A model generated the notes under the pieces. The model saw only the letters and a program-made list of their open reading frames with translations, ran no database searches and had not been told where the DNA came from. The position numbers were made by a program, and so were the translations under genes. A DNA stretch of 62,144 nt, filler included, from Acidimicrobiia bacterium (lineage in GTDB: Bacteria; Actinomycetota; Acidimicrobiia; Spongiisociales; JAHEDJ01), in assembly GCA_029210695.1 (NCBI GenBank). It is 3 parts of 3 records of this genome, joined end to end, with 100 filler letters (N's around TTAATTAATTAA, not from the genome) between each part and the next. Parts side by side here need not be neighbours in the genome. Positions count along the whole stretch, not along the records: positions 1 to 29,004 come from JARGFH010000006.1; 2 more parts are not named here. The stretch is one strand, 5' to 3'. Shown one piece after another: positions 3,631 through 62,068 of the stretch. Numbering within the stretch: the stretch's first letter is position 1; each line of letters starts with the position of its first letter.

Positions 3631-3660
3631 GTTCTGAGTTCTGGGTTGTGGGTTCTGAGG
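3631..3660 (+). repeat. Heptamer tandem array family A (GTTCTGA/GTTCTGG/GTTGTGG), left arm
   Basis: GTTCTGA GTTCTGG GTTGTGG GTTCTGA read directly; the inverted partner is at 3879-3906. Confidence 0.8.
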
Positions 3661-3706
3661 ACCTGTCTCCTGAGAAGATGCGCGAAGCATTGCTCAGGAG
3701 GCTGTT

Positions 3707-3902
3707 GTGCAGGACTATCGGAAACTCGACGTTTGGAAACTCGCTCATTATCCGACCCTCGAGGTGTGTTTACCCGTGATCTGGTTAACTGGGCGTGACC
3801 GCCCACCGGAGTTCGGCCGGCAAGGCCGACCGGCTGCGAAGAATGCTGACATCTCTCGAACGCAGCGTGGCAACAACAAAGAACCTGGAACCCAAAACGT
3901 AG
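3707..3902 (+). pseudogene. Internally deleted, frameshifted four-helix-bundle (TIGR02436-like) gene remnant
   Basis: AGGAGG RBS then MQDYRKLDVWKLAH..TLEV (family N-terminus). A second frame gives ADRLRRMLTSLERSV...KT* (C-terminus). The central SQIRRAAVSIPSNIAEG helix is absent; compare the intact copy at 25639-26016. Confidence 0.75.
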
Positions 3903-3906
3903 AACC
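3879..3906 (-). repeat. Heptamer tandem array family A, inverted right arm
   Basis: AAGAACC TGGAACC CAAAACG TAGAACC is the reverse complement of GGTTCTA-type units. Confidence 0.8.
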
Positions 3907-11083: not shown

Positions 11084-11212
11084 TGCGCCTCCTCGGTGGT
11101 TCTAGCTGATGGCATTACAGCCTAGAAGGGAAGGGCGGGGGCTGTGGCACGGGGCTGTGGGGCCATTGGTCACATTCGGGCGGCGGGCGGTCGCCCGCCG
11201 CCAGCAGCCAGA

Positions 11213-11303
11213 GGTTTTGGGTTTTAGGTTTTAGGTTGTGCGTGGATGAAGTGGGGCCGCGAGTGCCTGCGGCCCTGGGGCCAATTGCCAATCGCCAATT
11301 GCC
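11213..11303. repeat. Hybrid heptamer site: family A left arm plus family B inverted right arm
   Basis: GGTTTTG GGTTTTA GGTTTTA GGTTGTG ... GGGCCAATT GCCAATC GCCAATT GCC; preceded by the hairpin GGCGGCGGGCG-GT-CGCCCGCCGCC (11179-11202). Confidence 0.75.
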
Positions 11304-11374
11304 TCCGGGGCACGACGCCCCATCTACCCAACGACTCCCAAGTAGGAATAGTGCGTACGCCCCATAGATCCGTC

Positions 11375-12828: not shown

Positions 12829-12901
12829 GTTTTAGGTTCTACGTTCTGAGTTCTGAGTAGCTCCAGGCCGCGTTAGGACCTATAACCCAAAACCCAGAAC
12901 C
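12829..12901. repeat. Empty inverted heptamer array (family A) with short spacer
   Basis: GTTTTAG GTTCTAC GTTCTGA GTTCTGA ... TAGGACC TATAACC CAAAACC CAGAACC. Confidence 0.85.
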
Positions 12902-12933
12902 GACTCAGCGGCGATCGATCGAGGACTCACCAG

Positions 12934-15532: not shown

Positions 15533-15570
15533 CTGAACTCCTCTGTGGTGTCTGGAAAACGGTAGCAAGA

Positions 15571-15590
15571 GGCAATTGGCAATTGGCCCC
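15571..15590 (+). repeat. Heptamer array family B (GCAATTG), single arm
   Basis: GGCAATTGGCAATTGGCCCC; same sequence as the arm at 25605-25622. Confidence 0.75.
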
Positions 15591-18475: not shown

Positions 18476-18518
18476 GGTTCTCGGTTGTAGGTTCTACGTT
18501 CTGGGTCTTCGGTTCCGG
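18476..18518 (+). repeat. Heptamer array family A, single arm
   Basis: GGTTCTC GGTTGTA GGTTCTA CGTTCTG GGTCTTC GGTTCCG. Confidence 0.75.
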
Positions 18519-24095: not shown

Positions 24096-25532
24096 ATGAG
24101 GAGGAAAGAAGACGTGAGACGACTACGAAGATGGAATGTCCTGGCGCTGCTGGCCGCGTTTGCACTGGTGCTGGCGGCCTGCGCGCAGGATTCGACCGAC
24201 ACCACGGTGGCGGATACGGCACCAGATACAACGGTGGCGGATACGGCACCAGACACAACCGTGGCGGATACGACACCCACCGAAACGACGGTGGCCGACA
24301 TGATGATCACCACCGGTCCGGGTGTAACTGAGGAGCCGTGCCCGGGTGGTAACCCCGATCGCGGATGCATCTACCTCGGTGTCCTGACCGACGAATCCGG
24401 TCCGTTCGCCGGCGCCTCGGCCGGTCTGTACGGCGGCCAGAGCCTGTTCTGGGCGACGGTCAATGCCGGAGACGGCATCAGCGGCGCCTACGACGTGGCC
24501 ATCCCCGAGAACCTCAAGAAAGACACCGCCTACCAGCCTGAGAAGCTCGTCGCCGACTACAACACGATCGCCGAAGATGTGGCCGCCATCGCGCAGTCGC
24601 TCGGCACCCCGCAGACATTGGCGGCGCTCCCCGACTACACCAGGGACAGCACGATTGCCGCTCCAATGTCGTGGTGGTCCGGCTGGGCCTTCGAAGACCT
24701 CGTCATCGAGTTCGGCACCGGCTACTGCTTCGAGGCCATGAACGCGATCGACTGGGCGGTGCAGGCTGTGCCTGCGGCCGGCCGGACGTTCGCCACCATC
24801 GGCATTCTCGAGTTCCCGAGCGACTACGGCTTCGACTACGCGGCCGGTGTGAAGACCGCGGCCGAAGCCAACGGTCTCACCGTGGCATGGGAAGAGACGG
24901 TCATTCCGGTCTCGGCCGGCGGTGACCCTGCTCAGACTGAGGCGGTCGCCAAGATCGTCGCCGATCCGGCCGATGTCATCATTCTGGTGACGGGTCCGTC
25001 GGAGACGGCCGCCATCGTTGGTGGCGCCGCTCAGCAACTGGGCGCCAGCGTCCCGCTGTTCATCGGTGCGGCTCCTTCATGGAACTCGGCGCTGCTGGCC
25101 TCGGCCGCTGCTCCCGCCTTTGAGCTGGGTATCTACTACCAGTCCTCATTCGTGGGTGGTTGGGACTACGACTCCGCCGGTCACGAGAAGATGCGGCAAG
25201 CGGTGACGGCAGCCGGATTCCCGGCCAACGACTTCTTCATCTCCGGATGGGTGTCGCAGTACGGCCTGAAGGCGGCGCTCGAGGGAGCCTATGCCTCAGG
25301 TGATCTGTCACATGAGGGGATCATGAATGCTGCCTTTGCGCTGACCGATGTCGACTATGAGGGCATGATGCCGTCGCGATCGTTCGCCGGTGACCCCAAC
25401 GACGTATTCCCCAGGGAAGGCGTCATTGGTGGGTACTCGGCCGATGCGACGACCGGTATCGCAACGGTTCAGGACTTCTTCGTCGGTCCGACCGCGGAGA
25501 GCTACGAGTTCACTGAAGCCTGCGCCGGGTAG
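24096..25532 (+). CDS. ABC transporter substrate-binding lipoprotein (PBP type 1)
   Basis: Lipobox LVLAAC; Thr-rich linker; IYLGVLTDESGPFA; start could be GTG 24114. Confidence 0.88.
   Translation: MRRKEDVRRLRRWNVLALLAAFALVLAACAQDSTDTTVADTAPDTTVADTAPDTTVADTTPTETTVADMMITTGPGVTEEPCPGGNPDRGCIYLGVLTDESGPFAGASAGLYGGQSLFWATVNAGDGISGAYDVAIPENLKKDTAYQPEKLVADYNTIAEDVAAIAQSLGTPQTLAALPDYTRDSTIAAPMSWWSGWAFEDLVIEFGTGYCFEAMNAIDWAVQAVPAAGRTFATIGILEFPSDYGFDYAAGVKTAAEANGLTVAWEETVIPVSAGGDPAQTEAVAKIVADPADVIILVTGPSETAAIVGGAAQQLGASVPLFIGAAPSWNSALLASAAAPAFELGIYYQSSFVGGWDYDSAGHEKMRQAVTAAGFPANDFFISGWVSQYGLKAALEGAYASGDLSHEGIMNAAFALTDVDYEGMMPSRSFAGDPNDVFPREGVIGGYSADATTGIATVQDFFVGPTAESYEFTEACAG
24198..24278 (+). repeat. 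Intragenic 27-bp tandem repeat x3 (DTTVADTAP linker)
   Basis: GACACCACGGTGGCGGATACGGCACCA-like unit repeated three times in frame. Confidence 0.9.
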
Positions 25533-25554
25533 CAAGAAGCGTTACGAGCAATCT

Positions 25555-25586
25555 GTTTGGGGGGCCGCTGATGCGGCCCCCCAAAC
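25555..25586. terminator. Perfect 14-bp hairpin, probable terminator
   Basis: GTTTGGGGGGCCGC TGAT GCGGCCCCCCAAAC between convergent genes. Confidence 0.75.
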
Positions 25587-25604
25587 GCGTGGTGGGGCAA
25601 AAGA

Positions 25605-25622
25605 GCAATTGGCAATTGGCCC
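25605..25622 (+). repeat. Heptamer array family B arm downstream of four-helix-bundle gene
   Basis: GCAATTGGCAATTGGCCC; 17/18 inverted match to 26066-26083. Confidence 0.85.
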
Positions 25623-25638
25623 AGCTCCGTGGGCGCGG

Positions 25639-26016
25639 TCAGGCGGGGGTCGTCTTCGTTGCCTCGACTCGGAGCTTGCGGATCAGTGAACTGAGCATTC
25701 TCTGAGCCCGTTGAGTTTCAGCTAGAAGTGGTCCGAGGTGGCCTTCCTCTAGAAACCCGAGGCGATGTGCGATGACTAACTGGCACTCGACCTCAGCGCT
25801 AGAACCTCGGGCGTATCCAAGAAAACGGGCAAGATCACGTTGCGAGTCGCGGCCGGAACCTTCCGCGATATTCGATGGAATCGACACGGCTGCACGCCGG
25901 ATCTGGCTCGTCAGGCCAAATCTCTCGGAACCGGGGAACCTGCTCGATGCTTCGTAGATATTTGTCACGAGTCGGATCGAGAGATGCCATACATCTAGGC
26001 GACGGAAGTCTTTCAC
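25639..26016 (-). CDS. Four helix bundle protein (TIGR02436 / 23S-IVS-protein / bAvd-like family)
   Basis: MKDFRRLDVW...FPGSERFGLTSQIRRAAVSIPSNIAEGSGR...RFLGYARGSSAEVECQL...RMLSSL. Confidence 0.93.
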   Translation of the reverse strand: MKDFRRLDVWHLSIRLVTNIYEASSRFPGSERFGLTSQIRRAAVSIPSNIAEGSGRDSQRDLARFLGYARGSSAEVECQLVIAHRLGFLEEGHLGPLLAETQRAQRMLSSLIRKLRVEATKTTPA

Positions 26017-26065
26017 TCATGTGTTGTACATCAGCCGAGGGACAAGAACGGAGACACTGAGCCGG

Positions 26066-26107
26066 GGGCCAATTGCCAACTGCCAATTGCCAGCGGCCAT
26101 CGGCCGC
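26066..26107 (-). repeat. Heptamer array family B inverted arm upstream of four-helix-bundle gene
   Basis: GG GCCAATT GCCAACT GCCAATT GCCAGCG GCCATCG GCC. Confidence 0.85.
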
Positions 26108-26108
26108 T

Positions 26109-26684
26109 CTACCGTTCGCCCGCGACCCGCCACAGCACTGGGAGCAGCATGCCGGCCGCCATGATCTTCAGAAGATCGCCGACCACGAACGGCGCGAACC
26201 CGGCGGTCAATCCACCGGCGAGGTCCGTGCCGAGCACGTGCATCAGCCACGGGACACCGCAGAGGTAGATCACGGCGTTGCCGGCCAGCAGGGCGGGGAC
26301 GGCCGTCACAACTCTGCGGTCTTGTCGCTGCTCTGCGAGGTAGCCGACGATTGCCGCTGAGATGACGAAGCCGGCCAGGTATCCGGCGGTGGCGCCGGAG
26401 GCGTAGGTCCATCCGCCCTCGCCGCCCTGAAAAACCGGAAACCCGGCGAGACCGATTGCCACATACAGGGCTTGCGCGGCCGCACCAGCCCGGAATCCGA
26501 GGGCCGCCCCACTCAACAAAACCGCGAAGGTCTGGCCCGTCAGTGGCACCGGGGTGATGCCGAGCGGAATCCGGATTTGGGCGGCGAGCGCGGTCAGTGC
26601 GGCAAAGGTGACGACCAGAACCGCGGTCGAGACCCGGGTGCGTGGCAGGATGCGGGTTGACAGTACGGGGGCGTTGGCTTGCAA
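26109..26684 (-). CDS. bioY: Biotin transporter BioY
   Basis: TPVPLTGQTFAVLL, GLAGFPVF, GATAGYLAGF, PFVVGDLLK. Confidence 0.93.
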   Translation of the reverse strand: MQANAPVLSTRILPRTRVSTAVLVVTFAALTALAAQIRIPLGITPVPLTGQTFAVLLSGAALGFRAGAAAQALYVAIGLAGFPVFQGGEGGWTYASGATAGYLAGFVISAAIVGYLAEQRQDRRVVTAVPALLAGNAVIYLCGVPWLMHVLGTDLAGGLTAGFAPFVVGDLLKIMAAGMLLPVLWRVAGER

Positions 26685-58973: not shown

Positions 58974-58980
58974 GCGATCC

Positions 58981-59075
58981 GCAATTGGCAATTGGCAATT
59001 GGCCCCCGGTTGAAGCCGGGGGCGGGTAACCCTGACCATCGGCCATCGGCCATACAGCTGCCTACCGCCTACCGC
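58981..59075. repeat. Empty inverted heptamer array (family B) with internal hairpin
   Basis: GCAATTG x3 GCCCCC ... CCATCGG CCATCGG CCATACA...GCCTACC GCCTACC; hairpin GCCCCCGG/CCGGGGGC. Confidence 0.8.
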
Positions 59076-59095
59076 CGATTACGCCGCGTTATTCC

Positions 59096-62002: not shown

Positions 62003-62068
62003 GGCAATTGGCAATTGGCTCCGCATCATCGGGGCCGAACGTCTGGGCCAATTGCCTACTGCCTACCG
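62003..62068. repeat. Empty inverted heptamer array (family B)
   Basis: GGCAATTGGCAATTGGCTC ... GGGCCAATT GCCTACT GCCTACC G. Confidence 0.8.

Follow-up and report, generated by a model that had tools for sequence, protein, structure and literature searches.

Some intervening sequences (IVSs) of 23S rRNA genes, such as those of Coxiella burnetii and Leptospira, enclose an open reading frame (ORF) for an S23p protein between the halves of a terminal inverted repeat. The Coxiella IVS is 428 nt long; tandem heptamers (GACAGAT in three units, variable in copy number) precede and adjoin its S23p ORF, which tends to decay, and RNase III cuts the IVS at a 28-bp terminal stem (PMC4990558; here and below, statements on the literature refer to the available portions of the cited papers). 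Here we describe an element that encodes a four-helix-bundle protein of the same family (PF05635/S23p) and lies at positions 25605 to 26092 of a 62,144-nt stretch of DNA (the window) from the genome of an Acidimicrobiia bacterium (GCA_029210695.1, hereafter G000). The window joins three contigs of a 3.9-Mb assembly with 63% G+C, positions 1 to 29004 being contig C148. The element, which we call a cassette, measures 488 bp from arm to arm and consists of a gene between two inverted arrays of tandem 7-base units. In size it is similar to the IVS, and here too the ORF occupies the loop between terminal inverted repeats; folded as RNA, the two arms are predicted to pair in a 19-bp stem that closes the cassette as a whole, in the minimum-free-energy and the centroid structure alike. 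Unlike the IVS, the cassette lies outside an rRNA gene, between a Peripla_BP_6 (binding-protein) gene and BioY (no rRNA search of the window was made), and, unlike those of Coxiella, its arms consist wholly of heptamers, the unit recurring in about 46 further places of the genome.

The REPIN-RAYT systems offer a second comparison. There, a single-copy gene is flanked by inverted copies of a short, dispersed, intergenic repeat, the repeat families are lineage specific, and inheritance is vertical at fixed sites; the window system is alike in all of these respects. It differs in that its gene encodes a small helical bundle without a known catalytic site, unlike RAYT, and in that its repeats are tandem 7-mers, mostly in single arrays, rather than palindromes of about 25 nt in doublets. 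The Y1 HUH transposase of the RAYT type (PF01797) was found in none of the 41 genomes analyzed here, the same profile matching 6 of 14 control genomes.

Heptamer arrays are themselves known from several bacteria. Those of Beggiatoaceae (TAACTGA) and Xanthomonas (GGGAATC) are tandem, mostly intergenic, present as several related units per genome, and hypervariable among close relatives, as are the arrays described below, and the short tandemly repeated repetitive (STRR) sequences of heterocystous cyanobacteria are also heptamer repeats. Abundant arrays have been reported without an evident mechanism (PMC4679880), and an earlier slippage hypothesis has been relayed (PMC4692102); the available text of these two papers makes no mention of a four-helix-bundle gene, whereas here the arrays are tied to one.

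The layout of the window cassette is general in its protein family, the units of cassette arms are also those of dispersed arrays, the density of such arrays depends on the presence of the gene, and cassettes are exchanged, inverted, and deleted at their arms. Our favored reading of these sequence comparisons, held with about even confidence, is that the segment from 25605 to 26092 is a DNA-level selfish, IVS-like cassette whose basic protein would bind its own heptamers and thereby promote the copying, recombination, or retention of arrays.

Inverted heptamer arms in the PF05635 family

The original prediction placed a 125-aa gene between inverted heptamer arrays and set this unit among unrelated genes, and both statements were borne out: the left arm and the reverse complement of positions 26067 to 26084 share 17 of 18 bases, the right arm having one extra unit, and the neighbors are the binding-protein gene and BioY (Table 1). 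The encoded protein matches PF05635 (E 1.3e-35, 122.3 bits, cut-off 33.8) and TIGR02436 (E 4e-35, 120.3 bits, cut-off 24) and falls below the cut-off of the NF008911 subfamily (129.7 versus 137).

A PF05635 search of 40 relatives from the same genus and order yielded 27 loci, including that of the window. Period-7 arrays are present on both flanks at 20 of these loci, with inverted units at 18 when up to two mismatches are allowed and at 12 when only one is allowed; the same both-flank test returned one locus at period 5 and none at periods 6, 8, and 9. The 2,684 control ORFs of the G000 genome include 14 with an array on each side, and only two (up to two mismatches) or none (up to one) with inverted units. 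The arm unit varies from locus to locus (ATTCGCA, AGACGGA, CTTAGTA, GCGATTC, GACGGCG, GGCTTTC, CCAGTCT, and others). A wider scan of one genome per species, using the motif [VA]SIPSNIAE taken from a seven-sequence alignment, recovered 80 loci from about ten phyla (Acidobacteriota, Planctomycetota, Bacteroidota, Desulfobacterota, Firmicutes, Gemmatimonadota, Verrucomicrobiota, Nitrospirota, and Proteobacteria, with one archaeon). After the removal of six loci without 220-nt flanks, 32 of the remaining 74 have arrays on both sides (29 with inverted units at up to two mismatches) and 20 on one side; three loci of this set have period 8 in place of period 7, and 1 of 116 neighboring ORFs passes the inverted-arm test. 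Scoring the flanks of family genes, a check proposed with the original prediction, thus found inverted period-7 arrays to be far commoner there than around control ORFs, and the suggestion that gene and inverted arrays form a recurrent unit holds.

Smith-Waterman alignment of the two flanks reaches a score of at least 30 in 61 of 99 cassettes, and in several of them (L046, L111, and L065) the order of variant units is exactly mirrored between the arms, which indicates that the arms are inverted copies of each other and not two independently grown arrays. Within a set of 61 cassettes, the 5' arm, taken on either strand and read 5' to 3' toward the gene, contains more G than C in 45 of 57; this bias belongs to the polarity of the palindrome and not to gene orientation.

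An inverted repeat of this kind could instead act as RNA. The arms would then form a double-stranded stem when cotranscribed with the 3' region of BioY, RNase III would cut the stem and so release or insulate the cassette RNA, and the heptamer period would be a by-product. This is the main rival explanation, which we consider unlikely, and it may hold in addition to the DNA-level reading. The Coxiella precedent, in which RNase III excises the IVS at its stem and the element has tandem heptamers of its own (PMC4990558), speaks for it, as do the predicted 19-bp stem of the window arms and the location of the cassette between the BioY stop codon and a hairpin shared with the convergent neighbor, where read-through would cover arm, gene, and arm. 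Against it, the arm mismatches of 61 cassettes comprise 50 of the G-U type, 67 of the A-C type, and 111 others, without a G-U excess on the sense strand, and the lack of an RNA wobble signature suggests that selection acts on DNA and not on an RNA hairpin. Further, most arrays are single and can form no stem, arrays have no preferred orientation relative to flanking genes (14 versus 18, 20 versus 15, and 13 versus 11), and a stem needs no 7-base period, so that lineage-specific, dispersed units are left unexplained. The GGCAATT arrays are polar, with a sharp end carrying GGC(C/T)C beyond which a near copy of the unit follows in 0 of 28 cases, the other side fading out with a near copy in 9 of 28. 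Mismatch types, lack of orientation preference, and this polarity favor, without proving, a DNA-level element with polar arrays.

Outside chromosomes, plasmid copies of the family are concentrated in Nostocales. The Anabaena sp. 90 copy (L208, on pANA02) lies between cas6 and cas4 and has AGGTGAC and CTGTCAC arms, the Calothrix PCC 7716 copy has TTAGCTG and AAAAGCT arms, and in the copy on pGamma of Nostoc PCC 7120 the two arms differ in sequence and fail to match. Elsewhere, GGGAATC arms flank a cassette from an alphaproteobacterium (L117). Members of the family have been reported from cas loci (PMC3936711) and among rRNA insertions (10.1101/2024.02.27.582315), and its association with cas loci may reflect cassette insertion into operons. 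The literature, as far as available and with supplements not covered, describes the family as uncharacterized, and no paper was found that links it to heptamer arms outside rRNA genes.

Dispersed arrays and turnover of cassettes

In the G000 genome, 170 tandem stretches of 16 nt or longer repeat exactly with period 7, compared with three for period 8, one for period 10, and two for period 11; with a tolerant detector the numbers of arrays are 265 (period 7), 17 (period 8), and 2 (period 10). The dominant unit families (exact and tolerant counts, respectively) are GCAATTG (31 and 36), AGTCGCG (31 and 30), GGTCGCG (24 and 22), and AGGTTCT (23 and 27). Most dispersed copies are single arrays; those of the main families are mostly intergenic, without bias toward promoter-side or terminator-side spacers. 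Composite arrays occur in which the unit drifts stepwise from GGCAGTA through GGCAATA or GGCCATA to GGCAATT (C104:25951-26007, C115:116957-117012, and C41:2346-2383), from which it appears that the main unit "families" are linked by single substitutions. Many contigs of this assembly start or stop within about 150 nt of a heptamer array (for example, C3, C4, C5, C25, C100, C109, C113, C120, C156, and C163). The arrays evidently break short-read assembly, and contig ends within arrays may hide further cassettes.

Searching all 41 genomes with 2.5 to 3 units of several arm sequences, we found that the units of cassette arms are also the units of dispersed arrays, which upholds the predicted relationship of the scattered arrays to the cassette. 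The GCAATTG unit of the window arms has 46 matches in G000, 34 in G004 (whose cassette L008 has GCAATTC arms), 18 in G014, 7 in G006, 1 in each of three genomes, and none in the remaining 34; the reversed pattern, as a control, has none. AGACGGA, the arm unit of L013, has 200, 178, and 86 matches in three genomes of one genus and none in the other 38, and CTTAGTA, the arm unit of L012 and L022, has 24, 21, and 1 matches in that same genus and none in the other 38. GGTTCTA, from the arms of the cassette at the mdh site, is represented by 101 matches in G000, 114 in G001, and 50 in G002, which form the clade with that cassette, and by 4 to 15 in the other four members of the genus. Farther afield, a Pseudoxanthomonas genome with a GGGGACC-armed cassette contains 111 GGGGACC matches, many of them in inverted pairs about 100 bp apart; four genomes from other phyla have 0, 7, 0, and 0.

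Array density also follows the gene. When up to 100 kb was sampled from each of 16 relatives, eight PF05635-negative genomes had 9 arrays in 602 kb (1.5 per 100 kb), each unit occurring once, and seven PF05635-positive genomes had 61 in 634 kb (9.6 per 100 kb), a contrast whose weight is lowered by the small samples and by the nonindependence of related genomes. Within families, densities per 100 kb of gene-positive versus gene-negative genomes are 15 versus 1.1 (f2), 7.9 and 4.8 versus 2.8 (f6), and 10 versus 1.0 (f11); in f9, G014 has 19 versus 0.

These counts bear on a second alternative, namely, that the arrays spread by slippage and recombination without any protein and that the genes merely land or survive in hairpin loops. 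Arrays outnumber genes about 100 to 1, several abundant unit families have no cognate gene, the genomes with gene remnants only (G002 and G023) are still rich in arrays, and the published accounts of heptamers cited above lack an evident mechanism or relay slippage without the protein in their available text, all of which would suit such independence. We nevertheless regard it as quite unlikely: gene-negative relatives remain at background density, the within-family contrasts mostly favor gene-positive genomes (G034 being an exception), insertion of a gene into a direct array would yield direct and not inverted flanks, and arm unit and gene change together at one site.

That site is the spacer between BioY and the binding-protein gene, which is occupied in all six readable genomes of the genus and in six different states. 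It holds an intact gene with GCAATTG arms in G000, an intact gene with GCTCTAG and CCTATGG arms in G004, an intact gene on the opposite strand without arms in G003, a decayed gene non-orthologous to that of G000 in G001, a gene truncated to its N-terminal part in G002, and 425 bp without recognizable content in G005. The proteins of the site form two lineages (G000 and G003, 63% identical; G004 and G001, 63%), with less than 50% identity between them, and these lineages cut across the kinship of the genomes: G001, although closest to G000, with flanks 92 to 93% identical, belongs to the other lineage by its gene. Homology of the two genomes ends at 25612, inside the left arm, and restarts at 26093, the first base past the right arm; since the breaks fall at the arms, the exchanged unit comprises arm, gene, and arm. 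Inversion was seen between G012 and G032, in which the flanks align in reverse and the central 438 bp align forward, a clean event with breakpoints in the arms.

At other sites, where G003 has a cassette (L018), G000 has a short spacer free of arrays; opposite L008 of G004 it has a degenerate GCCAA-type remnant, and opposite the ACGTATG-armed cassette of G006 a gene-less AGAACCT array. Some arrays are common to G000 and G001, and the spacer at 15564-15588 of the window is replaced in G001 by a segment with a different unit. Two environmental contigs about 91 to 93% identical to the window carry deletions of 7 nt and 16 nt in the right arm, and contigs from four sequencing runs contained no joint that skips the cassette. 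Ten runs in all matched the window, each over only a small share of it, and none was an RNA run. The full, deleted, empty, and hybrid forms of the original prediction are therefore present at orthologous sites, with truncated and flipped forms in addition. Its view of a dispersing cassette fared less evenly: gene-less arrays are indeed dispersed in dozens to hundreds, but cassettes with a gene stay at fixed intergenic sites within the genus and are exchanged there.

The protein and a proposed mechanism

The RRxxxSxxxNIAEGxGR motif of the window protein includes positions R40/R41, S45, N49, and E52, which are invariant or nearly so among 23 aligned sequences, and the protein contains the published family motif GxxRxxxSxxxNxxE (PMC3936711). 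Its isoelectric point (pI) is 10.4, the median of 104 relatives being 9.0, and ratios of nonsynonymous to synonymous substitution (dN/dS) of 0.12 to 0.28 between intact orthologue pairs show it to be under purifying selection. The homologue found in the PDB is 2gsc (E 1.5e-24), and both 2gsc and 2rld are deposited with five chains. The protein of 2gsc is XCC0516, which we take, from the XCC locus-tag prefix, to belong to strain ATCC 33913. Its source is Xanthomonas campestris, and the Xanthomonas homologue is described as a homopentameric toroid (PMC4990558); X. campestris ATCC 33913 is reported to be highly enriched in GGGAATC heptamer repeats (PMC4692102). By analogy, the window protein is probably ring-forming. 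A match of a pentamer to arms of five units was considered and rejected, arms having mostly four units.

A conserved basic protein flanked by repeats could also be a domesticated regulator, that is, a host DNA- or RNA-binding factor autoregulated by its flanking sites, with the dispersed arrays as its regulon or as structural sites. Purifying selection, the operator-like position of the repeats around their own gene, and the mostly intergenic location of arrays would agree with such a role. It is hard to reconcile with array sites that are hypervariable between genomes with 92%-identical flanks, with a unit that differs from genus to genus, with a gene that is often deleted or decayed where arrays persist, and with arrays that prefer neither promoter-side nor terminator-side spacers nor an orientation, and we consider it very unlikely.

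The structural resemblance to Avd was the basis of a further suggestion, that of an accessory protein in a diversity-generating retroelement (DGR) or another reverse transcriptase (RT) system. Avd of the Bordetella phage BPP-1 DGR has a related four-helix-bundle fold and is a pentamer according to CDD and structure comparison (PMC10053308), and it is basic, as is the protein described here; PF05635 has been reported as Avd-like and as the commonest Pfam family near DGRs (PMC10053308). Unlike Avd, the window gene has no RT, template repeat, or variable repeat as a partner. The RT domain RVT_1 was found in none of the 40 relatives, 16 of which carry a PF05635 gene, and the three RVT_1 frames of G000 (301 to 539 aa; C148:42133-42834, C149:2181-2816, and C159:52367-52816) lie on other contigs or beyond the window. 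The family profile reaches 2gsc and 2rld among PDB sequences and does not reach Avd at E values up to 1. An RT-linked, Avd-like role thus found no support, the proposed test of co-occurrence with RTs being negative, and we judge it extremely improbable. The RVT_1 frames, which are possibly group II introns, occur only in G000 among the 41 genomes, and the G000 genome is about 1 Mb larger than those of its genus relatives.

Under the favored DNA-level reading, the basic protein would attach as an oligomer to the heptamers that make up its arms, with about one subunit per unit, and binding would promote recombination, copying, or retention of arrays with that unit. Gene-less arrays would be the nonautonomous offspring of the cassette, as REPINs are to RAYT, without a known catalytic enzyme, and the chemistry could be supplied by host recombination and replication slippage. 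The binding is inferred from sequence patterns, and no enzyme that would move the cassette was identified.

Several observations weigh against this reading. No catalytic partner was found. In comparison with transposons bearing terminal inverted repeats and with miniature inverted-repeat transposable elements, inverted ends are present, no transposase was identified, and the single filled/empty pair compared shows no target duplication; a check for presence/absence and target duplications proposed with the original prediction thus revealed filled versus empty or remnant sites and, at that pair, no duplication. Clean gene-less inverted pairs number only about five among the 265 arrays of the genome. 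Arrays are lacking altogether at 3 of the 27 order-level loci and at 22 of the 74 loci in the wider set, and L027, whose protein is the nearest to that of the window (63% identity), is among the loci without arms. Four units per arm, and not five, are most frequent.

Gene and arrays are also uncoupled in some genomes. G034 (f9) has the gene at a background density of 1.0 array per 100 kb, its comparison with G025, which has 0 arrays in only 32 kb, being uninformative. Conversely, G002 has only gene remnants and yet 7.7 arrays per 100 kb, and G023, 78% complete as a genome, combines 178 AGACGGA matches with a gene match that is only weak. The G000 assembly contains no cassette armed with AGTCGCG or GGTCGCG, families of 30 and 22 arrays there; G014 has its 18 GCAATTG matches without a GCAATTG-armed cassette, and in G018 the common dispersed units are other than those that arm its two cassettes. 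We conjecture that such orphan arrays are explained in part by gene loss after array expansion or by cassettes hidden at contig ends. Finally, protein identity and unit similarity are only weakly related (r = -0.20), and the units of the most similar protein pair (77% identity) differ at three of seven positions; a protein-to-unit "code," considered as a candidate, was not established, the relation being loose.

Beyond this genus, it is possible, although in our view doubtful, that PF05635 proteins are the missing factor behind the excess of heptamers in bacteria, with each ring-forming protein recognizing its own 7-base word, keeping it as inverted arms, and seeding or amplifying arrays without a transposase or RT, and with the rRNA IVS as the first-seen case. 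If true, this would constitute a new class of protein-guided repeat propagation and would join the role of a very large "unknown" family (23S rRNA IVS proteins, S23p, and Avd-like proteins), the nature and mobility of rRNA IVSs, and the origin of the abundant hypervariable heptamers of cyanobacteria, Beggiatoaceae, Xanthomonas, and others. The arrays, besides breaking assemblies, make the spacers between housekeeping genes prone to inversion, deletion, and gene replacement.

Further features of the window

The features of the window are collected in Table 1. Between the end of the right arm and the BioY stop codon lie 16 nt. On the other side, just outside the cassette, the GC-rich hairpin is probably a terminator common to the convergent binding-protein and BioY units, to judge from its sequence and position; a related GC-rich hairpin occupies the same position in all six genus genomes and is identical only in G001. 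A simple terminator scan of positions 25450 to 26250 made no call, this hairpin included, and a sigma-70 scan of the same interval gave no match. Upstream of most start codons at 24 order-level loci, TG(R)TA is conserved at a distance of about 13 to 14 nt (about 26029-26033 in the window); a TANNNT -10 box 4 to 9 nt before the start codon was found at none of these loci, and Shine-Dalgarno-like motifs upstream of the start were found at 3 of the 24. A leaderless promoter may be one candidate for the expression signal of these genes.

Table 1. Positions of the cassette, its neighbors, and other repeat features along the window
Feature	Positions	Strand	Remarks
Upstream arm of deleted cassette	3631-3659		GTTCTGA / GTTCTGG / GTTGTGG units
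Remnant of second four-helix-bundle gene	3707-3902	+	N- and C-terminal parts kept; 181 bp lost internally versus intact orthologue L005 in sister genome G001
Downstream arm of deleted cassette	3880-3906		AGAACCT-type units, inverted; stop codon TAG inside arm
Gene-less repeat cluster	11177-11304		GGTTTTA-type array, GC-rich hairpin, GCCAATT-type array; common to G001
Gene-less inverted pair ("empty" hairpin)	12833-12904		AGGTTCT-type arrays, 18-nt spacer; G001 assembly has N here
Single GGCAATT array	15564-15588		G001 orthologous site has different segment with GCCTATT arrays
Single GGTTCTN array	18476-18503		Also in G001
Peripla_BP_6 (binding-protein) gene	24096-25532	+	Unrelated neighbor, convergent with BioY
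GC-rich hairpin GGGGGGCCGC-TGAT-GCGGCCCCCC	25559-25582		T and A runs on its flanks; just outside cassette
Left arm	25605-25622		GCAATTGGCAATTGGCCC; GCAATTG x2 + GCCC; 3' arm relative to gene
Four-helix-bundle protein gene, 125 aa	25639-26016	-	PF05635 / TIGR02436 profile match, pI 10.4, motif RRxxxSxxxNIAEGxGR
Right arm	26067-26092		GGGCCAATTGCCAACTGCCAATTGCC; GGGCC then AATTGCC-type units x3; 5' arm relative to gene
BioY	26109-26684	-	Unrelated neighbor on other side
Composite cluster	58974-59080		GCAATTG x3 array, then CATCGGC and CTACCGC arrays
GGCAATT x2 array and nearby GCCAATTGCCTACTGCCTAC array of opposite polarity	62003-62068		From array scan of window

The predicted deleted copy with different arms at 3631-3906 is present, with an internal loss of 181 bp and inverted arms of the GTTCTGA type, and the further single or empty arms expected in the window were found at six sites between 11177-11304 and 62003-62068. 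The family is not multi-copy in this genome, as had been stated for it in general; the assembly contains a single PF05635 match in addition to the deleted copy.

The stop codon of the deleted copy (3900-3902) has parallels at many loci, the stop of four-helix-bundle genes falling inside the opening unit of the downstream array or immediately at it, with units that contain TAG, TGA, or TAA (L002, L005, L007, L008, L010, L012, L019, L020, L022, and L023). Where it falls inside that unit, the array encodes the C-terminal tail and ends the frame. The cassettes at the mdh site (L005 and L007; window 3663-3706) have an AGGAGG Shine-Dalgarno sequence inside a conserved hairpin, CCTCCTGAG...CTCAGGAGG, just before a GTG start, and in L005 and L007 this feature lies within 5 to 45 nt upstream of the start.

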